Part shown: piece by piece, positions 1,098 through 20,054 of the stretch | How the letters are laid out: each line of letters begins with the position of its first letter | How positions within the stretch are numbered: the first letter of the stretch is position 1 | Assembly: GCA_029856365.1 (NCBI GenBank) | Contig: JAHQWW010000033.1 | Coordinates: 1 to 29,601, forward strand | From: Candidatus Hodarchaeota archaeon | GTDB lineage: Archaea > Asgardarchaeota > Heimdallarchaeia > Hodarchaeales > Hodarchaeaceae | Direction: 5' to 3' | Length of the DNA stretch: 29,601 nucleotides | Notes under the pieces: model-generated | Told to the model about the DNA's origin: nothing | Databases searched by the model: none | Seen by the model: the letters and a program-made list of their open reading frames with translations, nothing else | Translations under genes and position numbers: made by a program

Positions 1098-2477
1098 GTG
1101 AGGAATATGAAATTTGAAGAGTTAAGTTTTAGCGAAGCACCCAAGATAGTTGGAGAACTTCCAGGAAAAAAATCGAAGAAGCTATTACAACTGCAGAGAG
1201 ATATTGAAGGAAGTGCACTCTCTTATCCAATAGGAATTCCGATTGTTATAGAAGAAGGTAGAGGGGCCACAATAAAAGATGTTGATGGTAATGTATTTAT
1301 TGACTTTTTTGCTGGAGCAGGGGTTGTCGCGCTTGGACACTGCAACCCTTACGTTCTAGAAGCAGTAAGAAAACAACAAAATAAAATCACACACACATTG
1401 GATTTTCCGACTGAAATTCGACTGGAATTAATCGAAAAAATCAGAATGATAATGCCAGGAAAATTAAGAGACGGTGTAAAAGTCCAATTTGGAGGGCCAA
1501 CAGGATCTGATGCAGTAGAAATGGCCATTAAGCTAGCTAAATACAACACAAATCGCCATTCATTAATCGCTTTTGAAGGTGCGTATCATGGAATGACAGC
1601 TGGAGCATGTTCTTTAACCTCTGGGAAATTTTGGAAAGAAAAATATATTCCTATGCTACCGGAGGTTCACTTTGTTCCTTATGCCTACTGTTATAGATGT
1701 GCTTTATATAAATCAAGGAATAATTGTAACCTTGAATGTGTCTCAGTATATGAACGAGTCCTTGAGGATCCGCATTCTGGAGTTGTTCACCCCGCAGCGA
1801 CCATTATAGAACCTATTCAAGGAGAAGGCGGATCTATCGTTCCTCCTAATGATTATATCAGCAAAATAGCAGAAATCAGTAAGAAATATGAAGTTCCAAT
1901 TATTTTTGACGAAATACAGTCAGGTTTCTGTAGAACAGGTAAAATGTTTTCTTTCCAACATTCTGGAGCTATACCAGACATTATTACAATGTCAAAAGCC
2001 TTGGGTGGAGGCTTTCCCCTCTCTGCTATTGCTTATAAAGAAGAACATGACGGATGGAGGAAAGCAGCACACATAGGTACTTTCAGAGGAAATGTTACAG
2101 CGATGGCAGCTGGAGTAGCTTCAATAGATTTCATAATAAAAAATAAGCTTGATAATCATACTACGGAAATTGGAAATCATATTCTAAATAAGCTTGAAAA
2201 AATCAAAGAAAATTCTGAAATTATTGGCGATGTACGAGGTAAAGGTCTCATGATTGGAGTCGAAATAGTGGAAAACAAAGAAACTAAAAAGCCTTCCGGA
2301 AAGCTCGCAGCTGATTTACGAACCGAGAGTTATAAAAGAGGAGTTCTTATCGAAATAGGGGGACATTACAATAACGTAGTAAGATTCTTACCTCCTCTCA
2401 TCATAACAAAGGAATTAGCAGAAATTGGAGTAGAAATTTTTGAAGAAGTTATAAATAATGTCGAGAACGAATTATAA
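1098..2477 (+). CDS. Class III PLP-dependent aminotransferase, diaminobutyrate:2-oxoglutarate transaminase (Dat/EctB)/GabT-like
   Basis: DFFAGAGVVALGH, QFGGPTGSDAVEMAIK, YHG, EPIQGEGG, FDEIQSGFCRTG, PLP lysine in MSKALGGG, HIGTFRGN. Alternative start ATG 1107. Confidence 0.9.
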   Translation: MRNMKFEELSFSEAPKIVGELPGKKSKKLLQLQRDIEGSALSYPIGIPIVIEEGRGATIKDVDGNVFIDFFAGAGVVALGHCNPYVLEAVRKQQNKITHTLDFPTEIRLELIEKIRMIMPGKLRDGVKVQFGGPTGSDAVEMAIKLAKYNTNRHSLIAFEGAYHGMTAGACSLTSGKFWKEKYIPMLPEVHFVPYAYCYRCALYKSRNNCNLECVSVYERVLEDPHSGVVHPAATIIEPIQGEGGSIVPPNDYISKIAEISKKYEVPIIFDEIQSGFCRTGKMFSFQHSGAIPDIITMSKALGGGFPLSAIAYKEEHDGWRKAAHIGTFRGNVTAMAAGVASIDFIIKNKLDNHTTEIGNHILNKLEKIKENSEIIGDVRGKGLMIGVEIVENKETKKPSGKLAADLRTESYKRGVLIEIGGHYNNVVRFLPPLIITKELAEIGVEIFEEVINNVENEL

Positions 2478-2485
2478 ATCCATCA

Positions 2486-3685
2486 CTATTCGCCCCAATG
2501 CTTAACAAATTGTGAATAGAATTCCATCGCTTTTACAAGGTGCTCTATAGGAACTTGATCCTCTATAGTGTGAGCAAATTTATCATCCCCAGGTCCAAAC
2601 CCTATTGTAGGAATATCAAAAATCCCTTTAGTAGCTGCACCATTTGTAGAAAATCGCCAGTAATAAAGGACAGGTTCTTTATTAAATTGAGTCTTGTAAG
2701 TCTTAATAGCCATCTGAACTAATGGATGAGATTCCTCCATTGACCATGTAGGATAATACGCTTTTATGGGGTAAATAACTCCACTTTTACTTCTATATTC
2801 GTGTTCTGGGATATTTACTTTTGCTTTCGCTTTCTTAATTGAATTTAAAGATCTTATTTCGCTAATTACACTCTTTTCAGAATCTTCTAAATTTAACCTT
2901 CTATCTACATGTATTGTTGCACTATCTGCAGTGGCATTAATCGATGGAGAAGTTGAACTAATCTTTGTGACAGTTATATTTCCTCTACCAAACGTTGGAT
3001 CAAGAGGAAGTACTGAGTTCATTTTCTCAATATCTAATACAATTGGTGCAATTTTGTAAATGGCATTTTCCCCTAATTCTGGGGCCGCACCATGACTTGA
3101 GATACCTGTGGTATGCACTACAATATCAACCCGACCCCGATGACCAATAGCGATGTTTAAGTTCGAAGGTTCGGTAAGAATGATTGCATCTGGTTTTATT
3201 TCATCTTCTTTAATAATATATTGCCAGTTCAATCCTTCATAAATTTCCTCTTGAACGGAAGCAACTACAAGGAGTGTAATATTTTCAGGTACTCCAATTT
3301 CTGTTAAAATTTTCCCAGCATAAACCGCGGAAGCAAGTCCTCCTTTCTGATCACATGCCCCCCGACCATATATAACTCCATTTTCAATTTTCCCTATAAA
3401 AGGATCATATTTCCAGTTTTGTGGATTCCCAATTTCAACTGTATCTACATGTCCATCGATAGCAAGAATTTTATCTCCATTTCCAATTCGTCCAATTAGA
3501 TTTCCCATCTCATCAATTTTTATATCATTATAACGAATTTTTTCCATTTCTTTTCTTATCCTTTCAATGACTTGAGCTTCATTACCAGTTATTGAGGGAA
3601 TGGCTATTAATTCTCTAGTAAACTCTGTTATATTGTTCTTTAAGGATCCAGCTATGTTTTTTATTGTGTTAATCATGATTATCAC
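2486..3685 (-). CDS. ygeY: M20 family metallohydrolase, YgeY-like
   Basis: DGHVDTV, GRGACDQKGG, QEE, TEP, GHRGR, SSHG, the WRFSTNG motif typical of YgeY-like proteins, GFGPG and AHT. Alternative start ATG 3676. Confidence 0.85.
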   Translation of the reverse strand: MIIMINTIKNIAGSLKNNITEFTRELIAIPSITGNEAQVIERIRKEMEKIRYNDIKIDEMGNLIGRIGNGDKILAIDGHVDTVEIGNPQNWKYDPFIGKIENGVIYGRGACDQKGGLASAVYAGKILTEIGVPENITLLVVASVQEEIYEGLNWQYIIKEDEIKPDAIILTEPSNLNIAIGHRGRVDIVVHTTGISSHGAAPELGENAIYKIAPIVLDIEKMNSVLPLDPTFGRGNITVTKISSTSPSINATADSATIHVDRRLNLEDSEKSVISEIRSLNSIKKAKAKVNIPEHEYRSKSGVIYPIKAYYPTWSMEESHPLVQMAIKTYKTQFNKEPVLYYWRFSTNGAATKGIFDIPTIGFGPGDDKFAHTIEDQVPIEHLVKAMEFYSQFVKHWGE

Positions 3686-5218: not shown

Positions 5219-5478
5219 TCTCCCTCATTCTGAACATCAACACAATTGATTACGAAATATAGTTCAAAAGTATTTCCCAACATAAACTGGCATATGTTTA
5301 TTAGAAAGTCTTCATATTAAATAATATTACAGTTGGGGTTGATTTATGATTTTTTATAAACCAAATTCCTTTGTCTAATAAAGACTATAATAAAGACACA
5401 CATCATAAAAACTAATGCTCAAGATCCATTCTATTAACTTTATTATGAATTTTGATAATAAAAAAGGTTGATGAAAGA

Positions 5479-6312
5479 ATGCCATCGTGGATTGATATTC
5501 TCATTTTTTATATTGTTTACTTTTTACCAAGTATTACGCTGACACTTCTTGCTCTAATAACTGGTATTCTTGTGTACTTTCTAGGGAAAAGAAAGAACCT
5601 CATTATCATGAATAACACCTTTAAAAAAACAAAGCAATGTAGTAAAGACTGGATAACAAATTTTAAATTAGCTGAAGAGAGTACAACAGGTAGAACATAC
5701 CTTCTTGAGGTGAAACCAAATCTATCCTTAAAGGACTTTCGTGTCCATTTTACAATGGTAAATAGACATCTCATTTTAAGCAAAATTGCTTCCATTCTAA
5801 GAAAACGTCGTGATTACATCCTTCTAGAAGCTGACCCAAGCGATAATGTTGTAAAACGATATCAGCTAGAAGTACTCCCAAGACGAGAAGAAAAAATGAT
5901 CAAAGCACTTTTAGATATGCTCGGAGAATTGGAACCATTAGAACTTGGAAGCTCTAAACTTGAAGAAATGTTCATATTTAGGGTTAATGATTCAGAATTA
6001 TTTCTTACAGCTTTTAAGAAAGGAAAACATATTATCAGAAATCTCTATTCCCTGAGAAATCAAATAATAAGACTTTCATATTATCCACTTGAAAGTCCTT
6101 CCATTCGAATAGTTGCAGTATTGAGCGAAAGTCTCAACCTTAAACCATTGATGGATCTATTATTCACCCTAACAGCTAATATCGCAGATCTTGGCAAAAA
6201 AGGATATTATTCAAAACAAAGAACCGTTGGGTTACGTATCCATGAAGATAAAACTGTTGAGAAAGATAAACGAAAATATAAAGGTCGAGGAAGAAATCTA
6301 GATTTATCCTAA
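5479..6312 (+). CDS. Membrane-anchored protein, CCDC47/DUF1682-like
   Basis: N-terminal hydrophobic segment followed by YFLGKRKN, later FTMVNRHLILSKIASILRKRRDYILLE, and a basic C-terminal tail. ATG 5479 is preferred over the ORF-track TTG 5452. Confidence 0.55.
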   Translation: MPSWIDILIFYIVYFLPSITLTLLALITGILVYFLGKRKNLIIMNNTFKKTKQCSKDWITNFKLAEESTTGRTYLLEVKPNLSLKDFRVHFTMVNRHLILSKIASILRKRRDYILLEADPSDNVVKRYQLEVLPRREEKMIKALLDMLGELEPLELGSSKLEEMFIFRVNDSELFLTAFKKGKHIIRNLYSLRNQIIRLSYYPLESPSIRIVAVLSESLNLKPLMDLLFTLTANIADLGKKGYYSKQRTVGLRIHEDKTVEKDKRKYKGRGRNLDLS

Positions 6313-6851
6313 GGTTTGTTTTCTACCAATTGAGCTTGAGTGCCACGAATTTTCTCTTCGATCTGATTTCGAATGTCGAACACATCAATAGATTTAGAAA
6401 AACGGTAGATTGGTAATTCTACGTACTCTCCTTCAAGATCATCTTCATATATACGAATACTAAAACCTTTTATGCCAGCAGCAGAAGTAGCTACTGATAA
6501 AGCTACAAGTGAGAAATCTTCCCATTTGTATTCAAATAAACGTTTTCCTACCTTTAATGAGAAATTATCTTTTCCTAGAGTTATCACCCTCTTAATATAA
6601 CGAGTATAGTACAGATAGGTAATCGTAAATGCTCCCACAATTAACACAATTACCGAGGGTATGTCTATAATAATCATTGGTTCACCAACAGATTGAGCTA
6701 TTGAGGATCGAATCAGAAAAAATCCAAACACTTCGATAGCAAGAATTGTTAAGAAAATTAAGATTATTGTGAAACCCCTTCTACTTTCCATAATAATTGG
6801 AAATGATTCTTCTTGAGTAGAGGTTGACTGTTGATCTCCTTTTTCAATCAT
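6309..6851 (-). CDS. Two-TM membrane protein with a C-terminal PH-like domain
   Basis: Two hydrophobic helices, then VITLGKDNFSLKVGKRLFEYKWEDFSLV, a bacterial-PH-like beta pattern with a 'W-x-D' signature. Stop overlaps the convergent gene's stop. Confidence 0.6.
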   Translation of the reverse strand: MIEKGDQQSTSTQEESFPIIMESRRGFTIILIFLTILAIEVFGFFLIRSSIAQSVGEPMIIIDIPSVIVLIVGAFTITYLYYTRYIKRVITLGKDNFSLKVGKRLFEYKWEDFSLVALSVATSAAGIKGFSIRIYEDDLEGEYVELPIYRFSKSIDVFDIRNQIEEKIRGTQAQLVENKP

Positions 6852-6864
6852 TAAAAACTCTTCC

Positions 6865-7440
6865 TCAAGACCAGAACTTTAGTCTAGACTTACCTTTTGG
6901 TAAATTTTTTGGGTGAAAGAGTTTCACACCATGTCTAGCAATAAAACTATCTGAGTTGAATATTTCAATATTTTTTAGATCAGCATAAAGTAATCCCAGT
7001 TCACGGGATGTATGACGATTAATATTATGTATAGTTTTGGTTGGTAACTCACCTTCACCAAAAAATAATAACCACATCCACTCAAAATCCATTGCTCCCA
7101 TGAGACTGGTAACATCACGTATCCAACCAACTAATACAGACCATTTTGCATTTTTAACATTTTTAAGGTGTATAGTAGCACATCCAACTCTATAAGTAGG
7201 GGAAGCCATGAATGAAAAGGCTCTAGATAAAACGAAACCTCTATGTCTCACTCCACCATAAATCAAGGAATCTATAGAGTTTTTTGAATGATTCTTCTTC
7301 TCTTTTTTGAACATCTGAGTAATGCTATAGTCTCTAATAGCGATATTAAAAGTTGCGATCCAGCGTCCCCCTTTGATCATTAATTCATGTTCTACGTAAC
7401 GAAGATATTCTTCTTTTTTAGTTAATTTTGTAGCAGACAC
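6865..7440 (-). CDS. Hypothetical protein, possibly an inactive restriction-endonuclease-like alpha/beta fold
   Basis: 191-aa ORF with alternating strand/helix pattern (IDSLIYG, YRVGCATI, EWMWLLFFG, LGLLYAD). Ends 13 bp before the next minus-strand gene starts. TATA-like GAAGAATTTAAA upstream. Confidence 0.6.
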   Translation of the reverse strand: MSATKLTKKEEYLRYVEHELMIKGGRWIATFNIAIRDYSITQMFKKEKKNHSKNSIDSLIYGGVRHRGFVLSRAFSFMASPTYRVGCATIHLKNVKNAKWSVLVGWIRDVTSLMGAMDFEWMWLLFFGEGELPTKTIHNINRHTSRELGLLYADLKNIEIFNSDSFIARHGVKLFHPKNLPKGKSRLKFWS

Positions 7441-7482
7441 AATCGTTCGTTTTTCTTTAGCTTTTTAAATTCTTCCATAATA

Positions 7483-7581
7483 AAAAAAAAGGTTGAGGTG
7501 GGTAGTTCTTAGTGAAAGTGAATTTTTATAATTTTGTTTTATCAATGATAAAAAAAAGGGGGGGGAATAGAGAAAAGGGTC
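7483..7581 (-). terminator. Pyrimidine/oligo-T tracts, probable terminator of the permease gene
   Basis: Minus strand directly after the stop reads as a C run followed by a long T run. A second tract (CCACCTCAACC then a T run) lies near 7483-7501. Confidence 0.5.
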
Positions 7582-9372
7582 CTATTCTGGTGGGATAGAA
7601 GCATAGATTGTTGAGAAGTCGACACCTTTTTTGGTATAGTAGCTTTTCATGTAGAAATAGATTACAATACCAATAATGACGAGTACCAAGACTGTATAGA
7701 ATCCCCAATTGAAGGTATCCATAATACCCTCTATACTACTCGTGTCGGTAGGAATGAATCCATCAACATTCGGTATAATTGGCATCGCCCCAATAAGCGG
7801 TAATGCCTCCATACCTTCCACTGGTATAAGGATGTTAAATTCTCCTAGGATGACTAGATCCAAGTAGATGTTCGCAATTAATGCGATTACACCGATGACG
7901 ACTACTGCTTCCATACCTCCTATCTTGGGACGCCAAGCAGTTCTTTCGTACACCTCTTTGAGTTTCCTGGGAAGCAATATTGCTGCTAAACAAGCCATAG
8001 TGAAGAATATACCATCTAACAGGTCTGTTGCGGTTATACCGTTTCCGAGAATCTGATCTAAGACAGGGATATTTATTGCCCCTTCTTTCGTGCCAAATAC
8101 ACCACTTTCAGCAAAAGCACCAAAAATAGCAACTATCGCACAAAAGAGAATTGCCACTGTGGGTGAGTGCCATCGCTCATCAACCTTAGCAAATGCCTCA
8201 GGAAGTGCTCTGTCAAAGGACATTGCAAAGAGAATTCGTGATGAGGTGGTGATGAATGGTGGGAGGTCATTAGCTAACCAAAGGACTGCCGCAGTTGCAA
8301 ACAGTAAAGGTACAATGCCACCAAAAGCCATATCAAGTCCATCAGCTGCAATAACAGCTATAAAAGGCATCCAACCAAAGCCAGAAATTGCAGGATCCCC
8401 AGTTGTTTCTCCATAATTCAAGAATCCGTTTGCTTGGAAGAACGTCCAACCACTAGCGTGATCGCCAACAGAAGCGCAAATACTTAGTAGTGTACTGATA
8501 GACATATAGACACCCAAGATGATGAACCCTGCTGCAAGATGAGAAATTGGTAGTGATCTGTTTGCTTCTTTAACTTCTCCAGCTGCGAATGAAATCGCTG
8601 CATAGCCGATCCATGACCAATAGGCTCCTAAAATTGCCGTATTTACTGCTGAAAAGTAATCTGGTGCCCTTGCATCCTCGATTCCTTGAGCTACTGCTTC
8701 TGTAATCCATTCATTGGGAGTATTTCCTGTGACTGCCAAAACACCATCTTCAACGGCTCCAGAGTTCAAAGCACCTAGGAGAAGAGATAGATAGATTCCT
8801 ACTGTGATAATTGCAGGAATCCAAAACATGATGTGTAGGAATTTGCCAGTCATTGATGTCCCAAAGTATGCAATAGCTGCGAAAGCGAATATAAATATAA
8901 TACCAATAACACACATCGCAAGCGGTGTGCCTATGGCACTCCAATCAATATCTGGTAGCGCAACTGGCATGAATAGAACAGTAAAATCTACGACAGCAAC
9001 AGCAATCAATCCATATGAGATAGCAATCCCTAGAAATTCAGCCCATGCTGACACAAAACCAACACCAGGACTAATTGTTCTTGAGATGTAAACATATCCA
9101 CCACCTGCTCGTGGCATAGCGGTAGCCATAACTGCGAAAACGAAGACAGTGGCAATCGCTGCTATTCCAGTTAGTAGAAATGCAACTACCAATGGATCTA
9201 TGTAGAATGGATTGTCTTCTGGGTGAAGAGGGGCCCAACCTGTGGTTTGGAAAACTCTTTTCTGCCAGCCACCACCAATAACGTTGCTGAGGATAAAGAT
9301 GGTAGCGGTTATAACCCCTATTTCTCTAACGAGTCCGGTTGCGTCACGGACATAAGTTTTTGATTCACTCAT
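7582..9372 (-). CDS. APC superfamily amino acid/polyamine permease
   Basis: YVRDATGLVRE N-terminus, MPRAGGGYVYISR, AGEVKEA, SSRILFAMSFDRALP, about 12 TM segments, C-terminal IYASIPPE. AGGTGA RBS precedes ATG 9372 (the ORF track starts at GTG 9381). Confidence 0.93.
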   Translation of the reverse strand: MSESKTYVRDATGLVREIGVITATIFILSNVIGGGWQKRVFQTTGWAPLHPEDNPFYIDPLVVAFLLTGIAAIATVFVFAVMATAMPRAGGGYVYISRTISPGVGFVSAWAEFLGIAISYGLIAVAVVDFTVLFMPVALPDIDWSAIGTPLAMCVIGIIFIFAFAAIAYFGTSMTGKFLHIMFWIPAIITVGIYLSLLLGALNSGAVEDGVLAVTGNTPNEWITEAVAQGIEDARAPDYFSAVNTAILGAYWSWIGYAAISFAAGEVKEANRSLPISHLAAGFIILGVYMSISTLLSICASVGDHASGWTFFQANGFLNYGETTGDPAISGFGWMPFIAVIAADGLDMAFGGIVPLLFATAAVLWLANDLPPFITTSSRILFAMSFDRALPEAFAKVDERWHSPTVAILFCAIVAIFGAFAESGVFGTKEGAINIPVLDQILGNGITATDLLDGIFFTMACLAAILLPRKLKEVYERTAWRPKIGGMEAVVVIGVIALIANIYLDLVILGEFNILIPVEGMEALPLIGAMPIIPNVDGFIPTDTSSIEGIMDTFNWGFYTVLVLVIIGIVIYFYMKSYYTKKGVDFSTIYASIPPE

Positions 9373-9576
9373 TTGTGTCACCTTTTAAATCTAAAAAGAT
9401 TTTTTGAGGTTTATTGAGATAGTAGTAGATTTCTCATTGATTATGTCTTTGAGAAAAAATATTTCCTTTTTTCTACTGCGAACCACAAAGTCTAATTAAG
9501 CGTAATGCTTACATTGGTTAGAACTTCTCTAGCCAATTAAACATTCAGCACAGAAATTCACGCGGTTACTTTTTGA

Positions 9577-9590
9577 TTATAAAACTTTCG
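9577..9590 (-). promoter_or_regulatory. Archaeal BRE-TATA promoter of the permease
   Basis: Minus strand CGAAAG-TTTTATAA is close to the BRE+TATA consensus and implies a TSS near 9550. Confidence 0.6.
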
Positions 9591-10016
9591 CACAAATTTG
9601 ATTTATCTGACACTATCAATTAAGAGTAAGAACTTATTCTAAATATAAAATTAAACATGATATTATTCATTCTTCAATATAAGAGTATAGACCATTATCT
9701 CTCTCTCCAGTATTAGAACTACATATATTCAGTTCTTAGATAATCAATTTATTATAAAAGGCATCTAGTGCGGATCCCTAACGAAAAAAATTTTTTGTGT
9801 AAATAAGATTACATTAACCTATACACAGATTGTATTAGGACTTTTCTTTAATAGATAAAGAAAATATGCGATTTAAGAATAATTTTTAACAGGTAATTGA
9901 TTAAATCTTCGAAGTTATAATTAATGTAAGAAAAAAGCTTTTACTTTAATTTACATTTTCATAATAAAATCAAAAGTTAAACAAAAATGCATTAGAAATT
10001 CGAGTTCCTTGTTATT

Positions 10017-10030
10017 CGAAAAATTAATAA
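10017..10030 (+). promoter_or_regulatory. Candidate BRE-TATA promoter of the metallophosphoesterase
   Basis: CGAAAAATTAATAA about 80-95 nt upstream of the CDS. Confidence 0.4.
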
Positions 10031-10111
10031 TATAATATCTAATAGCCAAATGTGTAGCCTAACAAAAGAACAAATCCCCTGATACGATAAAACAGATCAA
10101 TTAAAAAGCTG

Positions 10112-11131
10112 GTGAAAATACTGGTAAGATTATTTTTTTGCACTGATATTCATGGTTCAGAGGCCGTTTGGAGAAAGTTCATTAATTCAGCTAAATATCT
10201 AAAAGCTGATACTTTGATTATGGGTGGAGACATTACAGGTAAAAGAATAGTACCGATAATTCAACAACCTGATGGTACTTGGAAAGGTAGCATATATGGA
10301 GTATCCGAACAGAATGTCATAATGAAAACCGAAGAAGAGATCTTAGATTTTGAAAAACGCGCAAGGTTTGCTGGCTGCTACCCACACCGCTTAACAGCAG
10401 AAGAGGACGAAATATTATCATCCATAGAGTCTGTTACAGAAGATGGTAAGATGATCAAAGGCGGACCTCTCGATAAGTTGTTTGACCAAGTAGAAGCTGA
10501 AGGATTACAACTCTGGATTGATATGATAGATGATATAATGGATGATGGAACGAAACGTGTACCAGAAGGAACAAAAATTATCATCTGCCCTGGAAACGAT
10601 GACAAATTTGCCATTGATGATATTATAATTAAAGATCCCAGAGTCATTTTCGGTGAAGGAGCAAAAGTGGATCTTGACGATCACCACGAAATGATAAGCT
10701 ATGGTTGGACGAACCCCACACCATGGAATACCTACAGAGAGACTGATGAAGAAACCATCGAAAGAAAGATCGAAGAGTTAGTTCCACTTATTAATGATAT
10801 TAAAAACGCAGTTTTTTGTTTTCACTGTCCTCCTTATGACTGCATTATTGATGAGGCACCACTTCTAAAACCAGATCTAACATATGTTGGTTACAGTGGT
10901 GGAGAACCTATACGTGGACCCACTGGAAGTAAAGCAATTAGGAAAGCAATTGAAAAATATCAACCAATGCTTGGCCTCCATGGTCATATTCACGAATCCG
11001 CTGGGTATACAAAGATCGGTAGAACATATGTTCTCAATCCTGGTAGCGAATATACTGAAGCTATTCTGAAAGGATTCCTGATAGAACTTAAGAAAGGAAA
11101 AATAACAAAAATGCAAAGAGTAGAATCCTGA
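10112..11131 (+). CDS. Calcineurin-like metallophosphoesterase (Icc-related)
   Basis: All five metal-binding motifs are present: TDIHG, GGDITG, PGNDD, FHCPPY, LHGHIHES, followed by LNPGS. Confidence 0.92.
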   Translation: MKILVRLFFCTDIHGSEAVWRKFINSAKYLKADTLIMGGDITGKRIVPIIQQPDGTWKGSIYGVSEQNVIMKTEEEILDFEKRARFAGCYPHRLTAEEDEILSSIESVTEDGKMIKGGPLDKLFDQVEAEGLQLWIDMIDDIMDDGTKRVPEGTKIIICPGNDDKFAIDDIIIKDPRVIFGEGAKVDLDDHHEMISYGWTNPTPWNTYRETDEETIERKIEELVPLINDIKNAVFCFHCPPYDCIIDEAPLLKPDLTYVGYSGGEPIRGPTGSKAIRKAIEKYQPMLGLHGHIHESAGYTKIGRTYVLNPGSEYTEAILKGFLIELKKGKITKMQRVES

Positions 11132-11291
11132 CTTCAAAATTCATTAAACTTTTACCAATGCAAGTAAGAATACTAATATAATATATTTTGTGACAGATAA
11201 AGAAATTTAAATCCTCATTTTCATAAAAAAAGCTTTTAAATAGTTGAACGTTGAAGCCTTGAATGTTAAAAAAAAACATGAAGGATAAACA

Positions 11292-12152
11292 ATGGAAATT
11301 TCAGCAAAAAATCACAATGATGAACTTATGAAAGTCGGATATCAAATCTTACAAGAATGTCTTGATGAAAATATTCCTTGTTTTCTATGGGGTGGTGGAG
11401 CAATCTACCATATGCTTGGTGGGAAGCTTGATTATAGAAAAATGAGTGATCTCGAGTTTTTCATTCCAAAAAAAGTTGATAATCAAATGAAGAAAATTCT
11501 CAAGCAAATGGGATTTTATGCTAATAGACCTTTTAATATGATGCAAAATATGTCGAAAACACCTAGAAGAGAGTTTTACCGTCCTGATCGTGAACTCACT
11601 GAGATAGAAGTGGAAGAAATAGAACACGGTAGAAAGGGTAATATTCAAGACGTTGAATTTCAGAAAGTTGAAATATTTGTTGTCGGTATTAAAATGTGCT
11701 GGACTTTCAAATTCAAAGAACTACCATCAAGTTATACAAACACCTTAATATGCCCCCCAGGGTTTCAGTTAGCTCTTAAAGCAAACGCAATCCATTCTGA
11801 TGACTTTGATCTCAAAGATATTCAAGATATTTCAAGTGTTGTTAGTTCGAGCTGTTGTGGAGAAGTCACAACGAGAGATACAATTTTTACAGAGCCACAC
11901 TTGGATGAAAATATCAGATACTCCGTTGGAACAGAGATATTTAAACATTTATCGAAAAGAAAGTTTGAATTTCCCTCTACCATTATCAGAAATTTTACTG
12001 AATGTCTAAACTATTCAGGGTTATCTGAAGATGGTAAAACGACATTGTTAGAATTGATTGACTTCTTAAAACCTTTCGAGGAAAGTGATAAAAGCGGAAG
12101 TCTTCTATCAAAAGCTAGGAAGGAAAGACCTAGACGGGTTGACGCTAGATAA
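11292..12152 (+). CDS. Pol-beta-superfamily nucleotidyltransferase-like protein (paralog A)
   Basis: FLWGGGAI...RKMSDLEFF (hGG...DxE), third acidic strand KVEIF, and C-terminal K...KDIQD motif as in AbiEii/DUF2204-like NTases. Confidence 0.7.
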   Translation: MEISAKNHNDELMKVGYQILQECLDENIPCFLWGGGAIYHMLGGKLDYRKMSDLEFFIPKKVDNQMKKILKQMGFYANRPFNMMQNMSKTPRREFYRPDRELTEIEVEEIEHGRKGNIQDVEFQKVEIFVVGIKMCWTFKFKELPSSYTNTLICPPGFQLALKANAIHSDDFDLKDIQDISSVVSSSCCGEVTTRDTIFTEPHLDENIRYSVGTEIFKHLSKRKFEFPSTIIRNFTECLNYSGLSEDGKTTLLELIDFLKPFEESDKSGSLLSKARKERPRRVDAR

Positions 12153-12417
12153 ACATCAAACTCAAGTTAGATATGGGTATTCTTTTTCCGTTAAACATTG
12201 AAAAGTCAATAATCCAAACGTGAGAGTAACTAAAGCATTGTTTCAAGTATTCTAATATTGTTTTAAACAGTTAATTTAACCTGCTGACTGATCTCAACGT
12301 GTCAACAAAAACAGTGGAATATTTTTTTGACTTTAATTCTTGTTGTGTAATAACAGAACGTATTAAAGGTACAGTAATCCTCGTTAACAGAGGTGTTCTT
12401 GTTCTGAAAGAGAGCTG

Positions 12418-13341
12418 TTAATCTTTAGGTTTCTCAAGAAGGTGTTTACCACTAAAGATCCCGAATTCACCAACAGTTGCAGTTGTTTCGACTGGCCTGT
12501 ACCATCGTTTTGATGTTCCAATTTTAGCTCTAGCACGCCAGCTACGATTCTTGGGAACATTTTCAAAGTATTCAACCATTTCGTCAATTTTCGTTCTGAT
12601 AGTATTTTGTTGTTCCTCTGAAAGTTCTTTAAATTCTGGTAATACATTTCTGATATTGGTTAAGTTTGTGTTCACAGTGTGATAGAAACCCCAGGCATAC
12701 CCTCCTTTTCGAAAATACTTTTCAGCGATATGTTTGATATTTATTGTCTCTGGACTATCATCATAACCAATCTCGTGACCCAGTAATAACATTATTGTGT
12801 CAGCAACATCTTTATAGTTCATATATACAATCTGAGTTTTCCCTAAAAAGAGCTCAGCTAAAGGAAGAGTTGGAGAATCCAATTTTAGTCTGTTGAGATC
12901 TAATTCAATATCATGATTAAATTTCATTGCACCGTAAAAACAGTCCACAAACCACCAATTTTTGGGGTGGATGTAGATTTTACGTTGACTAGCAGCTGTA
13001 GATAATGTTGTCGCTCTTTTGAAGTAACCAAACTTTTCCATGAATTTGTCCATTTTACCACGATGTTTCATGGCTATTGCTCCATCAATATCTGTAATTT
13101 CACTGACATTCTCTCCCAAACGCTTCATTCGCATGTATAAATCTTCTAAATTATGTTGTTGACAATGGAGACGTATTGCTAAACCACCAACCAATCGAAA
13201 TTGAACACCAAATTCTTCAGCTTGTGATACCATTTTTGTAGCTTCATCAATAAAAACTTTTAGAGGAATAATTCCAGCCCATTCTTCGGGCATATCTACA
13301 GGTACGCCCTCTTTTTCTTGTAAAATTATTGTAACCTCCAT
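12418..13341 (-). CDS. Pol-beta-superfamily nucleotidyltransferase-like protein (paralog B)
   Basis: RLVGGLAI...EITDIDGA (hGG...DxD), FVDCF, LFLGKTQI...NYKDVAD, and basic tail KNRSWRARAKIGTSKRWY. Confidence 0.75.
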   Translation of the reverse strand: MEVTIILQEKEGVPVDMPEEWAGIIPLKVFIDEATKMVSQAEEFGVQFRLVGGLAIRLHCQQHNLEDLYMRMKRLGENVSEITDIDGAIAMKHRGKMDKFMEKFGYFKRATTLSTAASQRKIYIHPKNWWFVDCFYGAMKFNHDIELDLNRLKLDSPTLPLAELFLGKTQIVYMNYKDVADTIMLLLGHEIGYDDSPETINIKHIAEKYFRKGGYAWGFYHTVNTNLTNIRNVLPEFKELSEEQQNTIRTKIDEMVEYFENVPKNRSWRARAKIGTSKRWYRPVETTATVGEFGIFSGKHLLEKPKD

Positions 13342-13548: not shown

Positions 13549-15324
13549 TCATGATGATTCTCCTTTGATAAGCCTTTGTTCATTGGGAGTAATTTTATAA
13601 AGAGAAAAAGCAATTTCATCAATATAATTTTGTAGTTGTTGAAGTTCCTTATAATTACGGACAATTGAAGCAAGATAATTTGAAGCTTGCTGTTCTCCTA
13701 GTGTGGACTCTTGGAATATTTCATTGATATCTTTTTCTTTTATCAATTGTTTGTAAAACCATCTGAAACTATGAAATTCTGTTTTTCTTGGATATAAAGG
13801 GTAAGTTCTCTTATCCCGTATCAATTGAGTTATTCTCGTCTTTAAATTCTCCCCTCCTTTCTGATACTTAGAATAAAATTCTCCCAAGGTATAAAATTTA
13901 TCAATATCTGTTTGTGATTTCATCTCTTTCAATATTTTCTCATATTGATTAAACTGCAAAAGTTCTGATAGTCTTTTACGATACTTAATGCTCTTTGAAT
14001 CAGAAATATGTGGAATCCTTATCAGATTAATGTAAGCTCTATCAAAATCCTTGCTAGTGACAAACTCTTTTGTATAGACAGCATGACACAGCCACCATTC
14101 AATAAATGATGATTTCAACAAACCAGCTATAGCAGTTAAAGATAGAACTTCTTGTGGATAATTAGGAATGATGTTAATCACAGTCTCATGTGTTAAAACA
14201 GCTCCTTTTTGATCTACCCATGTCTTCACATCTAGAGAATAAGTTGGTTTTGTTTGGTAAGAAATTATTCGCTGAGCAATGATTTTAGGTATTTGTTGCC
14301 TCATGATTCTCTGTTTCGGAGTATTTTCTTTTAAAAAACCACGTGGTGGTAGTAAAAAACCAGAAGCAATATTAGCTTTTTCTATCAGGGGAATGGTTCC
14401 ATTTTTTTCACGAAATTTACTACTTAATCCACGAAATGCATTTACATTTAAGAATTCAAACTCATTGCTATAAAGACGCCGAATGATTTCTAACTCAGAA
14501 TTATTAACTCCTACCAAAAGATTATCTATGATTAATGCATCAGAATTGAAAATAAAACTTCTTTGCTTGAATTTTTTTTCTATAGGATTCCAAATACCTG
14601 TTTGATACTTGTGATACTTGATATCAGGAAGAATTTTCTTTAAAATCAGTACAATTTGCTCTTGCAATTGTCCAGAAAACTGATTACCAAGGTCTAAAGC
14701 TTCAATTAGACAATAATTGGTTAGGAGAAGTTTTCTAAACTTTCTCCATCTTTTGGAATAAATAATTGGTTTTGGTAATAGATAACAGAGGATACCACCT
14801 GATTTAAGAAGTTTAAGCGATTTTAAAGTGAAAAAAATGGAACTTTCAGGATAGATATGAAGATTTTGACCAAAAAGACAATTTTCTCTAATTTTCTTCC
14901 ACTCAGCACGTGAATAACGTGCATTATGAGGTGGGTTTCCAATAATAACATCAAACTCTTTTGTTGGTATGTCTGAAGGAAAATCTAAAAAAAAATTCCC
15001 AATCTTTAGTACAATATCGTAAGAAGATTCAATTACTAGAGGAAATAACTCTTTTTCTGCTATTTTAATTACAGAAGAATCGATATCTAACCCATAAAGT
15101 TTTACGGAAGGAAATAATGGAGAAATCAATGGAATTAAAGTGGAAAAAAAAACACCTTTTCCTATTGCTGGGTCTAATACTGTTATTATTTTTGATCGAT
15201 GATCAATAGGAAAATAATCTACTACGCGCTTTAACACGGCTTTTACTATTGGTTTAGGGGTGAAGAATTGCCCTTTGTCCTTTTTTATTTGGTTATAATT
15301 GACCATTCGGATTCTTGTCCGCAT
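13549..15324 (-). CDS. N6-adenine methyltransferase (TaqI-like, NPPH variant) with a C-terminal target-recognition region
   Basis: KGQFFTP (motif X), LDPAIGKGVF (motif I), YGLDID, FDVIIGNPPH (motif IV). Start overlaps the upstream stop (TAATG). Confidence 0.88.
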   Translation of the reverse strand: MRTRIRMVNYNQIKKDKGQFFTPKPIVKAVLKRVVDYFPIDHRSKIITVLDPAIGKGVFFSTLIPLISPLFPSVKLYGLDIDSSVIKIAEKELFPLVIESSYDIVLKIGNFFLDFPSDIPTKEFDVIIGNPPHNARYSRAEWKKIRENCLFGQNLHIYPESSIFFTLKSLKLLKSGGILCYLLPKPIIYSKRWRKFRKLLLTNYCLIEALDLGNQFSGQLQEQIVLILKKILPDIKYHKYQTGIWNPIEKKFKQRSFIFNSDALIIDNLLVGVNNSELEIIRRLYSNEFEFLNVNAFRGLSSKFREKNGTIPLIEKANIASGFLLPPRGFLKENTPKQRIMRQQIPKIIAQRIISYQTKPTYSLDVKTWVDQKGAVLTHETVINIIPNYPQEVLSLTAIAGLLKSSFIEWWLCHAVYTKEFVTSKDFDRAYINLIRIPHISDSKSIKYRKRLSELLQFNQYEKILKEMKSQTDIDKFYTLGEFYSKYQKGGENLKTRITQLIRDKRTYPLYPRKTEFHSFRWFYKQLIKEKDINEIFQESTLGEQQASNYLASIVRNYKELQQLQNYIDEIAFSLYKITPNEQRLIKGESS

Positions 15325-17453: not shown

Positions 17454-20054
17454 ATGTTCCGATTATATTCTAGTTTGAAACCTTTTTATGATAGGTTTCT
17501 TAAGAGGGGCCAGTCTTATGGACTACCTTCTTACGAAATCCATGAAATGGCCCTAAATCTTTTTATTAAATTCCTAGGGGTAATTATTTTAGCACCATGG
17601 GAAAATTGGAGCATTAAAAATCCGAATTCACTCACAGGTACTCGTAAAATTAGAATGTTGATTCATGAAATTCTATTTCAATTAGATGTTCAACGGTCTC
17701 AACTGTTCACTGATAGAATACCACCCATCCTTGATGAAATACTCAAACTATCACCTCAAGAGGCCCAATTTAAGGATTCATTATCATCTGAAGAATGGGA
17801 TGCACTTGTAGAGATGCTTCTCGCACAGCAATGGACAATAGCTGAAAATTTCGATAGCATCTCAGAGGAAGAAAAACAATTTTCTCCTGAATTTCTTTCT
17901 TATTTTTATGAAAATATTCTAAATGATTTTGAAAATTTCTTTCGTTTAACTCCCAAAATTTCAAAGAGAAAACATAAGGGGGTGTTTTATACTCCTTGGC
18001 GTATTATCCGCGAGATTACTAATAAATGTCTCGATTACCATGAGTCAAAAAATTCTCACCTGTTCAAGGACAAGGAAAGAAATGTAAGAATCCTTGATCC
18101 AAGCTGCGGAACGGGCTCATTTCTTCTTTATAGTGCTGATAGCCTTTATCAACGTTATAAAAGGAACCAAAATCTAAATTCTCTCCCTCACGAAATTATT
18201 GAGCGTTGCATTTATGGGATAGACCTTTCTCCAAGCAGTATAACTGTAGCTAAAATTAGATTATTATTTTGGATCCTGAATCTGAGTCCTAATGTTATGG
18301 ATTCACTTCCCTCCTGGCTTTTTAGAAATATTTGTGTTGGAAACAGTCTATTTGGGCTTTGTAAAGAGAGAATTCAATATCCTCTAGATTACTCCGCAGC
18401 TCTTTCGCGGATCAACATGTATTTAAAATCAGATACTGAGAATAATTCAGGAAAATTAACAGGAGTAAGTGAAAACTGGATTATAATAAGTCTTCGGGTT
18501 AAGGAAGAAAAAACTCAGCCATTGTTTTCAAGCTCTCATCGAAGAGAGATTTGTAAAGCTGAAAAAGAACTTTCATCGCTTGTAAATATTTTTTATCAGA
18601 ATTGGTTAAAAAACCGTCTACATAATTTTCCACGTCCTGTTCCCCTAAAGAAAAGAGATCTAAACACAATTCTTCCCTTTCATTGGGGGGTCGCATTTCC
18701 TGAAGTTATTCTCCAAGGTGGATTTGATCTAATAATAGGAAATCCTCCTTATGGAAGGTCAATCCTTTCAAAATCGGAAAAATCTTTGTTGAAATTAGTT
18801 TACAAATCGTGTTCAGGTCAAAATCCCAAAAAGTACAGCTTAAATGCTGCTAGCGCTTTTATTGAAAGATCTATCACTCTTCTGAGACAGAATGGAACAT
18901 TAGGTTTAATTGTCCCGTTTTCTATTCTGAGAGTTGAAGAATTCGAAACTCTGCGTGAATTCATGTTAGAAAGAACAATGATCTGGAGAATTAATGATGA
19001 ATCAGCCGCTTTTACTGATGTTACTCTAGAAATGTGTTCTATCTTCTTATCTAAGAAAATTAAATCTGATTATGAAGTTTCCATCAATCCTCGTCCTAAA
19101 ATTAAAGCAGAACCTAGTGTTCATATTAGTGTTTTTAAAAAGTACAACCGCTTCATGATTTATTATAATAATTTATGGGATAAAGCTACTAGTCAAGGAT
19201 TGGTCTTAAATGGTGTTGTAAGCGGTGATTATGGAATAGATCATAGAATTTTAAAAAAAGATTTAAGCTCTGAATTCACTTCAAAATATCCTATTTGTTA
19301 TTTACATTCTGGACGAAGTGTGGCAAAATTTGCATTAAATCCACAATATTTCCAATGGTCAAAACCTCATCCAACTAATAAGCGTTTCACAACTTATTTT
19401 CGGGAGCCTCGTCTTGTGAACACTGCCATTGGTAATCGATTTAAGGTCGCTTATAAACCAGAAAAGATTATACCTGGTACCAATGTTTCCATATTAGAGA
19501 TTGGAAACTCCTATCACTACTTTCCTATGCTAATCCTATTAAATTCTGACCTTATAAATTATCTTTTAAAGAGATATATTCTTAATTTCAGTCATTTAAC
19601 CGTCTATCTTCACAAATATTATACAAAACTAATTCCAATAAAGTACCCCCATGAATTTGAAGAAGAATTCAAAACTCTTGCTAGTTATCTTATTTTTCTT
19701 AATCAAGCTCATCTCTGTGGGAAATTGCTTATTGATAAAAGAAATGAGTATCTACTTAACTTGGCGAACTATCTAGTTTTTGACCTTTATTTCCCAGAAA
19801 TTTTAGGAATCTCCTCAAACTTAGCGGTCAATGTGGGAAAATACTTGAAGCCCATTGAAATTGAGTCTTTTCTTGATCTAATTCTCTTTCAAGAATCTGA
19901 AACTGATCCAGCAATAATATCTCGGATCATTACTTCAAATTGGAAAATCGTTCGCCACGTTACTAATCGGTTGAGAGAGGATGAGGAAATAAGGCAGTAT
20001 AAGAAGACCATTTTTAATCATAAAATTGTGAAATGTATTCGTAAAGAACTTTAA
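17454..20054 (+). CDS. Large Eco57I/type IIG-like N6-adenine DNA methyltransferase without a recognisable nuclease domain
   Basis: KGVFYTP, ILDPSCGTGSFL, YGIDL, GNSL, FHWGVAFPEV...GGFDLIIGNPPYG, FIERSI, and a TaqI_C-like C-terminus (LLNSDLINY). Confidence 0.9.
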   Translation: MFRLYSSLKPFYDRFLKRGQSYGLPSYEIHEMALNLFIKFLGVIILAPWENWSIKNPNSLTGTRKIRMLIHEILFQLDVQRSQLFTDRIPPILDEILKLSPQEAQFKDSLSSEEWDALVEMLLAQQWTIAENFDSISEEEKQFSPEFLSYFYENILNDFENFFRLTPKISKRKHKGVFYTPWRIIREITNKCLDYHESKNSHLFKDKERNVRILDPSCGTGSFLLYSADSLYQRYKRNQNLNSLPHEIIERCIYGIDLSPSSITVAKIRLLFWILNLSPNVMDSLPSWLFRNICVGNSLFGLCKERIQYPLDYSAALSRINMYLKSDTENNSGKLTGVSENWIIISLRVKEEKTQPLFSSSHRREICKAEKELSSLVNIFYQNWLKNRLHNFPRPVPLKKRDLNTILPFHWGVAFPEVILQGGFDLIIGNPPYGRSILSKSEKSLLKLVYKSCSGQNPKKYSLNAASAFIERSITLLRQNGTLGLIVPFSILRVEEFETLREFMLERTMIWRINDESAAFTDVTLEMCSIFLSKKIKSDYEVSINPRPKIKAEPSVHISVFKKYNRFMIYYNNLWDKATSQGLVLNGVVSGDYGIDHRILKKDLSSEFTSKYPICYLHSGRSVAKFALNPQYFQWSKPHPTNKRFTTYFREPRLVNTAIGNRFKVAYKPEKIIPGTNVSILEIGNSYHYFPMLILLNSDLINYLLKRYILNFSHLTVYLHKYYTKLIPIKYPHEFEEEFKTLASYLIFLNQAHLCGKLLIDKRNEYLLNLANYLVFDLYFPEILGISSNLAVNVGKYLKPIEIESFLDLILFQESETDPAIISRIITSNWKIVRHVTNRLREDEEIRQYKKTIFNHKIVKCIRKEL

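Follow-up and report, generated by a model that had tools for sequence, protein, structure and literature searches.

Why an APC-family permease should be encoded beside a metallophosphoesterase (MPE) and two nucleotidyltransferases (NTases) is the question raised by positions 6309-13341 of contig JAHQWW010000033.1 from the Asgard archaeon Candidatus Hodarchaeota archaeon. The window analyzed here is the entire 29.6-kb contig, which belongs to a 4.24-Mb metagenome-assembled genome (MAG) that is 84% complete; the names of near-identical database proteins assign it to Hodarchaeales, within Heimdallarchaeia. Six genes occupy the block, and the open reading frames (ORFs) agree exactly with the coordinates assigned to them in a first-pass annotation of the sequence. 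The comparisons described below show that the permease, the MPE and one NTase, termed NTB, are a real conserved unit across archaea and bacteria, and that the block represents a single copy of a conserved permease module. Two hypotheses for the function of the module lead, one regulatory, with a writer and an eraser of a covalent mark, and the other proposing that a solute is imported and processed. The balance of evidence is on the side of the former, without settling the matter.

The permease gene (7582-9381, minus strand), which encodes a 599-aa protein of the 'long' subtype, heads an operon-like row on the minus strand that continues with acc191 (6865-7440, minus strand), specifying a soluble protein of 191 aa, and acc180 (6309-6851, minus strand), specifying a 180-aa protein with two hydrophobic helices and a small soluble domain. 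An AT-rich divergent intergenic region of 730 bp (9382-10111; GC content 0.26) separates this operon from a second one on the plus strand that comprises the genes for MPE (10112-11131; 339 aa, with all metal-ligand motifs) and for the Pol-beta-type NTase NTA (11292-12152; 286 aa, with the signature GG...DxE...E). The core NTase of the module, NTB (12418-13341, minus strand; 307 aa, with the signature GG...DID...D), is convergent with NTA. The first-pass annotation had placed both NTases after the phosphoesterase in a series: both are present, but NTB is on the opposite strand and faces NTA.

Conservation of the trio of permease, MPE and NTB was assessed by retrieving NTB loci with an alignment narrower than the full family, which yielded at least 449 loci among GTDB species representatives. 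The best 80 loci were used for neighbor counts. An MPE homolog was located within 8 kb of NTB in 63 of these and a permease homolog in 57, which bears out the statement in the first-pass annotation that such neighborhoods recur in unrelated archaea and bacteria. The loci were from Bathyarchaeia, Nitrososphaeria, Chloroflexota, Actinomycetota, Bacillota, Methylomirabilota and Acidobacteriota, spanning approximately eight phyla with at least six gene orders and orientations. As many of the 80 are from related Chloroflexota, the raw counts overstate independence, and the case for linkage is carried better by the range of phyla and gene orders. NTB and MPE also occur as natural fusions of ~580 aa in six protein clusters, one of them from Planctomycetota, with NTB at residues 5-252 and MPE at residues 265-581. 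Five genomes with an NTB locus devoid of MPE all carry three MPE copies elsewhere.

The phyletic distributions of the two enzymes matched closely. In a fixed sample of 200 genomes from the phylum of the window, MPE and NTB were both present in 71 and both absent from 123, with three genomes possessing MPE only and three NTB only; the six discordant genomes are all at most 88% complete. These genomes include kin and are not independent observations, with 24 or 25 of 59 genera involved. Among 16 loci from this phylum, NTB was beside MPE in 13 and a permease was nearby in 12. One Bathyarchaeon with a 2.5-Mb genome harbors ten copies each of MPE and NTB, and eight of the ten MPE genes are within 3 kb of an NTB gene. 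A mirror-tree test with five paralogous trios of one genome was not significant. Within the genus, the block, including a flanking gene for a membrane protein denoted TM286, is intact in ~12 genomes in the arrangement TM286, acc180-acc191-permease, MPE-NTA and NTB, with the flanks rearranged in four. Synteny of the block in 12 genomes of the genus, despite differing flanks, and recurrence of its core in different phyla put the arrangement far beyond what chance would give. Failure of the homologs to co-occur or co-localize and lack of a Pol-beta fold in the NTases had been named at the outset as outcomes that would tell against a module. Both were examined: the homologs co-occur and co-localize and, as detailed below, the fold was recovered.

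The permease matched Pfam family AA_permease_2 across residues 63-584 with 80.4 bits (cut-off 27; E 1.6e-22), and long-permease homologs in Bathyarchaeia loci were matched by hidden Markov model (HMM) at E values of 1e-115 to 1e-149. In an alignment of 84 trio-linked permeases, for which overall identity is ~29%, the APC motifs PxxGGxYxY, GExKxxxR and RxxxAxSxDRxxP are conserved. The proteins also share a tail that begins directly after the last helix and ends the polypeptide, (K/R)xxG[IV][DN]....[FY].[EQS][IV]PP[EVL]-COOH, in which G586, P597 and P598 are conserved in 96, 98 and 90% of sequences, respectively. A second motif, [FY]xRxx[ST]GLxR, is located in the cytoplasmic N-terminus: R12, G16 and L17 are present in 83 of 83 sequences, and position 15 is Ser or Thr in all 83. 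The window permease begins ...TYVRDATGLVRE and ends KKGVDFSTIYASIPPE, thereby fitting both motifs, which correspond to residues 10-19 (9325-9354, minus strand) and residues 584-599 (7585-7632, minus strand), respectively. Tail and N-terminal motif occur together in 83 of the 84 relatives, the remaining sequence being cut by a contig end. The tail is absent from two APC permeases that are unlinked to the trio, and the window permease is the only long ORF in its genome with such an ending. The trio-linked permeases are a special subfamily defined by these two elements. A sole other APC-family permease was found in the genome of the window (G000:C107:2836-5268); it is 810 aa long with an extended C-terminal soluble region and without the IPPE tail.

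The tail is the subfamily hallmark and a candidate docking motif, and offers the most promising lead on a physical connection between the permease and a soluble partner. The invariant Ser/Thr15 is a candidate site of modification. Covariation between the last residue of the tail (Glu versus Val or Leu) and columns in the MPE or NTB alignments gave no clean charge-swap signal, with phylogeny as a confounding factor.

MPE scored 24.9 bits against the Pfam family Metallophos (cut-off 21.5). Its metal motifs are D12-x-H14, G39-D40, N162-D163-D164, H238 and H290-G-H292-x-H294, the residues of which, apart from H290, do not vary across 95 members. The first-pass description of an APC permease divergent from an intact phosphoesterase is upheld. 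Motif III has the form GNDD in place of GNHD/E; motifs II and III are separated by a conserved insert of ~100 residues; K44 is invariant; and the family length is ~315-340 aa. The motif set places MPE in the calcineurin-like metallophosphoesterase superfamily, and the protein is probably a phosphodiesterase. The YfcE/MJ0936-type and SapH/PrpE-type enzymes, which are phosphodiesterases and Ap4A hydrolases, share the dinuclear-metal motif set and a residue other than His in motif III, which is GNCD in YfcE. They differ from the module protein in its insert, invariant K44 and length. No solved relative was found by sequence: PDB sequence relatives of MPE are weak only (SapH 3qfm, profile E 0.004, and aq_1956), and PDB sequence searches with NTA, NTB, MPE and the permease produced nothing useful. 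Two further sets of MPE sequences were observed. The genome of the window contains a second MPE fragment (G000:C161:7123-7443) with 62% identity and an in-frame TGA, and Hodarchaeales possess a paralogous MPE group with ~55% identity and an insert in the region of the GHxH motif (G011:C19, L026:9001-10029); no other gene of the module is located within 9 kb of it.

NTB lacks a Pfam match, although one distant relative carries the NTP_transf_5 label. Residues R49, G52, D84, D86, D133, H143, K168, Q170, D181, W217, G218, K264, W268, R271 and W280 are invariant in 110 members, and the conserved C-terminal helical domain ends PKxxxWxxRxxxGxxxxWY. An AF2 model of NTB (pLDDT 85.3) aligned with MenT1, 5uvd (a fungal NTase-like protein), ANT(2'')-Ia, JHP933 and LnuA with VIA Z-scores of 11.2-9.4 over 139-182 residues. 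The catalytic set and the modeled fold place NTB in the Pol-beta-fold NTase superfamily. NTA fell just below the cut-off for the Pfam family NTP_transf_5 (PF14907; 29.4 bits versus 31.2), and many of its orthologs carry the precomputed label; G35-G36, D53-x-E55 and E127 are invariant in 15 orthologs. The relation between NTA and NTB is invisible to BLASTP (E 0.29), but profile-profile comparison with hhalign linked them across 202 columns (probability 95.7%, E 1e-8). NTA is, by its profile, a remote NTB paralog, and this homology together with its catalytic set places it in the same superfamily. The earlier assignment of a Pol-beta fold is borne out, and that of paralogy also, provided that the relation is understood to be remote.

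The pairing of NTases proved less general than first proposed. Most bacterial copies of the module have one NTase, all 55 NTA homologs are from Hodarchaeales, and NTA was detected in this genus only, with none in the 80 loci or in 34 related loci elsewhere. A second, diverged NTase does occur in four Bathyarchaeia-class loci and two Asgard loci; orthology of the Bathyarchaeial protein with NTA is not claimed, as the hhalign probability was only 60%. Tandem NTB duplicates are present in a Peptococcaceae MAG (L029:1811-3862) and in a closed Asgard genome (L126:5757-7912) in which one copy is 451 aa long with an extra N-terminal region. Thus, NTase doubling arose more than once.

By its modeled fold, NTB groups with the MenT, ANT(2''), Lnu and JHP933 NTases. 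ANT(2'')-Ia, LnuA, JHP933 and MenT/AbiEii share with NTB an NTase core followed by a helical C-terminal domain and the hG[GS]...Dx[DE]...D set. Identity to NTB is 9-17%, however, and NTB is without Pfam or NCBIfam membership, possesses its own invariant C-terminal motif (K264, W268, R271, W280), and has MPE and permease as partners in place of a resistance or toxin-antitoxin context. As the MenT1 toxin is the best structural match (Z 11.2), and as the window includes several methyltransferases of restriction-modification type, a toxin-antitoxin or phage-defense element with a MenT/AbiEii-like toxin was considered, as was a chance assembly of unrelated neighbors. Both are very unlikely indeed. 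No AbiEi/MenA antitoxin was found beside the NTases, PADLOC gave no match for NTA or NTB and merely a partial generic match for MPE, the module is found within catabolic loci, and its phyletic pairing with MPE is near perfect. Moreover, the block is kept across phyla, whereas its adjacency to the methyltransferase and CCA-enzyme genes is not retained even within the genus. The defense reading was rejected on the PADLOC result and the genomic context. A tRNA-directed activity, suggested by the MenT similarity and a neighboring CCA-enzyme gene, was rejected because that adjacency is not kept within the genus.

The two remaining genes of the block were examined with HMMs for acc180 and acc191 constructed from genus orthologs. 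No homolog of either protein was detected by tblastn in the 80 NTB loci. The HMMs matched a 325-aa Bathyarchaeial protein whose N-terminal half corresponds to acc180 and C-terminal half to acc191, and which is encoded between an MPE-NTB pair and a permease 46% identical to that of the window. A profile search recovered acc191 from 13 of 121 Bathyarchaeia-class genomes; in 13 of 13 the gene is immediately downstream of the long permease, with MPE and NTB alongside wherever the contig reaches (those of L112 and L121 end short). At these 13 loci acc180 either adjoins acc191 or is fused to it in the order acc191-acc180. Fusions of the two occur in both orders (L107, L120-L124). In other Asgard genomes the acc genes are also located just downstream of the long permease. 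The proposal that both accessory genes belong to the set is therefore upheld. As acc191, acc180 and the second NTase recur in Bathyarchaeia and Asgard loci, the six-gene architecture is a recurrent subtype and no quirk of one genus.

The acc191 family is small, with 64 representatives among 1.84 billion proteins. Fold matches to an AF2 model of acc191 (pLDDT 86.5) were borderline, the best having Z-scores of 8.9-8.0, and the top of these (8.9-8.5) being AF1548, VC1899 and the Can2 nuclease domain. The conserved residues of acc191 are E17, G62, G68, S72, P81, Y83, W121 and W123, among which no D...(D/E)xK nuclease active-site set is discernible; a near-invariant SPTY motif carries a Tyr. The model suggests, as a borderline assignment, that acc191 is a soluble protein with a restriction-endonuclease-like alpha/beta fold devoid of the catalytic motif. 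For acc180, language-model features in the ESM Atlas gave values of 0.92-0.96 against families that combine two transmembrane helices with a bacterial PH domain, which serves as a lead only. Following this lead, acc180 may be a membrane anchor with two transmembrane helices and a small PH-like soluble domain that partners acc191. Together acc180 and acc191 are a membrane-anchored non-enzymatic pair that is part of the set in the Asgard/Bathyarchaeia subtype.

The genes around the module vary with lineage and paralog. Chloroflexota loci include genes for choline/ethanolamine kinase, MttB, DMGDH-type oxidases with ETF, aldolases, an aminotransferase and a HAD phosphatase; Anaerolineae loci have GntR, an aminotransferase and an FGGY kinase; Thermoleophilia loci have DeoR and a class-III aminotransferase; and Bathyarchaeia loci specify adenine deaminase, amidase, a proline-racemase-type enzyme and glutamate dehydrogenase. 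Thus, different copies of the trio are accompanied by unrelated catabolic genes, the choline kinase/MttB/DMGDH set in one case and, in others, FGGY kinase with aminotransferase, amidase, proline racemase, adenine deaminase or glutamate dehydrogenase. As these pathways vary while the trio is constant, as both enzymes have diverged less than the permease (mean p-distances of 0.56 and 0.56 versus 0.71), as the permease tail is near-invariant even between domains of life, and as the extra partners are non-enzymatic, the enzymes seem to act on a constant feature of the permease complex and not on varied solutes. Catalytic residues never decay in 95 MPE and 110 NTB sequences. The extra partners, namely a protein with four CBS domains (4xCBS) encoded right after NTB in 27 of the 80 loci, Chloroflexota among them, restriction-endonuclease-like acc191 and PH-like acc180, are of non-enzymatic adaptor or sensor types, a further point leaning toward a switch.

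The explanation tentatively preferred, with confidence somewhat short of even, is a covalent and reversible nucleotidyl switch on the permease complex. MPE and the NTase(s) would assemble on the permease, probably via the conserved tail. The NTase(s) would then transfer a nucleoside monophosphate (NMP) from the corresponding triphosphate (NTP) to a hydroxyl group of the complex, for which the invariant Ser/Thr15 preceding the first transmembrane helix or acc191, through the Tyr of its SPTY motif, are candidate acceptors, and MPE would remove the NMP again. Uptake of an organic nitrogen compound could thereby be tuned to the state of the cell by a logic like that of GlnD/PII/AmtB, but built from unrelated parts.

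In its logic, the known system nearest to the module is GlnD/PII/AmtB. The GlnD-PII(GlnK)-AmtB system and the GlnE/glutamine synthetase system share with the module the pairing, at times within a single polypeptide, of a Pol-beta-type NTase with a metal-dependent phosphohydrolase, and a genetic tie to a transporter of nitrogen compounds. A writer fused to an eraser is the architecture of GlnD. The presumed logic shared with GlnD-PII-AmtB is, by analogy, a reversible covalent NMP mark. In contrast, the transporter of the module has an APC and not an Amt fold, the eraser candidate is a calcineurin-like MPE, and the NTB fold is nearer to MenT/ANT/Lnu than to GlnD or GlnE. As PII, HD, ACT and Amt domains are all absent from the window genes and from the annotated 80 and 34 related loci, the module is not a member of the GlnD/PII/AmtB system and the resemblance is an analogy only.

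Several considerations weigh against a nucleotidyl switch. The nearest structural relatives of NTB, as judged from its model, include small-molecule O-nucleotidyltransferases (ANT(2''), LnuA) and tRNA-modifying toxins but not protein AMPylators. With up to ten copies per genome and one shared tail motif, a docking enzyme would be unable to distinguish between permeases. Phe is as frequent as Tyr at the [FY] position of the tail in the 84 permeases, and therefore the tail itself is no universal Tyr acceptor. The conservation gradient is weak evidence because membrane proteins often diverge faster than soluble ones. Finally, the NTB gene of some Chloroflexota belongs to a catabolic operon, and MPE and the permease are then encoded several kb, or over 8 kb, away.

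The first of these considerations, together with the catabolic setting, brings in the other leading hypothesis, in which the module processes or traps its substrate. The permease would import an amine or amino alcohol, with choline and ethanolamine as examples, NTB would O-nucleotidylate this compound on entry by ANT/Lnu-like transfer, and MPE would cleave the resulting phosphodiester, e.g., to a phospho-compound and a nucleoside, thereby feeding the catabolic enzymes encoded nearby with PnuC-NadR-like coupling to transport. This explanation is possible, if rather unlikely. The proximity of the NTB fold to MenT1, ANT(2'')-Ia and LnuA (Z 9.4-11.2) speaks for it, as do loci rich in choline/ethanolamine kinase, MttB, DMGDH, aminotransferases and aldolases, and the many diverged paralogs per genome are typical of catabolic modules. 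An MttB-family enzyme demethylates phosphocholine and not choline, the phosphocholine being made by a dedicated kinase (PMC12155760). A phospho-amine product of the module would suit such a demethylase. The published result fits the choline flavor of several loci, although the families described here were not involved in that study. Large conserved islands in Chloroflexota (L088, L092, L094, L060 and similar) have the order DMGDH, ChoK, APC, MPE and DeoR in one direction followed in the other by NTB, CBS, ChoK, DMGDH, transaldolase, class-II aldolase, aminotransferase and HAD, often also with MttB and ETF; these islands look like an undescribed route for choline or phosphocholine via demethylation to a phospho-aldehyde and sugar phosphates.

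A class-III aminotransferase, possibly of the phospho-lyase type, also accords with substrate processing. It adjoins the trio in seven of the 80 loci, in Thermoleophilia and Bathyarchaeia, and is encoded in the window (1098-2477; 459 aa) with an M20 peptidase (2486-3685) ~4 kb upstream of the block; in G010 (L025), which belongs to the genus, NTB has this pair as its immediate neighbors. The aminotransferase and peptidase may be a downstream catabolic partner of the module. Nevertheless, the pathways alongside the trio, which include amidase, proline racemase and adenine deaminase, are too diverse for a single hydroxyl-bearing substrate, a kinase is already encoded in many loci, and an NTase acting with a diesterase is a costly way to produce a phosphate ester. 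Processing of a solute also leaves unexplained the conserved permease tail and the non-enzymatic partners, and fails to account for enzymes that are more conserved than the permease.

Permeases that are functionally tied to a soluble nucleotide-using enzyme encoded alongside are known in PnuC-NadR and ArsB-ArsA. These are unrelated families, and the module differs further in having two opposed activities, transfer and hydrolysis. By analogy with ArsA/ArsB, MPE and NTB could be obligate catalytic subunits, docked on the C-terminal tail of the permease, whose cycle of NMP transfer and hydrolysis spends NTP to drive or gate the APC-fold permease. A fold known from secondary transporters would then operate as a primary pump. 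Each permease operon does possess its own highly conserved soluble enzymes, as ABC operons have ATPases; the catalytic residues are invariant, the permease tail is conserved, and the two half-reactions are fused in some lineages. Energization of this type is nonetheless improbable: coupling of such a kind is without precedent, NTB can be far from the permease, and in some Asgard genomes MPE and acc191 lack a nearby permease. At two loci from Asgard genus g36 (L130:5793-7486 and L140:7249-8939) MPE adjoins an acc191 homolog with no permease or NTB within ~7 kb, and NTB is present on another contig of these genomes.

The fusions and the 4xCBS protein are also relevant to a messenger system in which NTB would synthesize a nucleotide, perhaps cyclic, that MPE degrades, with the permease or the CBS and acc proteins as receptors. 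Fusions of synthase and hydrolase are typical of messenger turnover, the CBS-pair protein follows NTB in about a third of the loci counted, and CD-NTases have the same fold. This arrangement is distinctly improbable, however, as matches to CD-NTases are weak (TM ~0.2 for CdnB and CdnE), PADLOC found no CBASS/CD-NTase or other defense family, and a diffusible signal would cause cross-talk where one genome holds ten copies in parallel. A nucleotidyl switch confined to the permease complex is thus preferred to each of these alternatives, at the tentative level stated above.

TM286 (5452-6312, plus strand) encodes a membrane protein and is convergent with acc180, which it adjoins in 11 loci of the genus, rearranged ones included. 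No TM286 homolog was found in any locus examined outside the genus, and membership of the module, which is based on synteny within the genus only, is uncertain. The 730-bp spacer between the two operons is poorly conserved when compared within the genus, and Rfam and tRNA scans gave no match either there or elsewhere in the window. Four methyltransferase genes of Eco57I/N6_Mtase type are present (1-903, 13549-15324, 17454-20054 and 21057-23417), one of which overlaps the stop codon of the gene for a class-II CCA enzyme; four restriction-modification-like methyltransferases in 29.6 kb is an unusual density.

APC permeases are among the most studied transporters, and to our knowledge no member has been described that depends on, or is regulated by, an NTase and a phosphodiesterase of its own. 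The gene set is previously undescribed: no description of it was found in the literature searched, within the limited scope of that search. The unit is carried by more than one-third of the sampled genomes from the phylum of the window, with up to ten copies in some archaea, and occurs in loci that serve the breakdown of choline, betaine, amino acids and purines. With its conserved tail, invariant Ser/Thr and natural fusions the module lends itself to direct tests, and a solved mechanism would give function to three families without a Pfam model, NTB, acc191 and acc180. Whether a covalent switch, vectorial trapping or energization, any one of these mechanisms, if true, would add a new principle to transport biology; energization in particular would be a previously unknown way for a 'secondary' transporter to draw on nucleotide energy, and one present in hundreds of species of bacteria and archaea, Asgard archaea among them. 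The module likely shapes the uptake of organic nitrogen by uncultured microbes of soil, sediment and peat.

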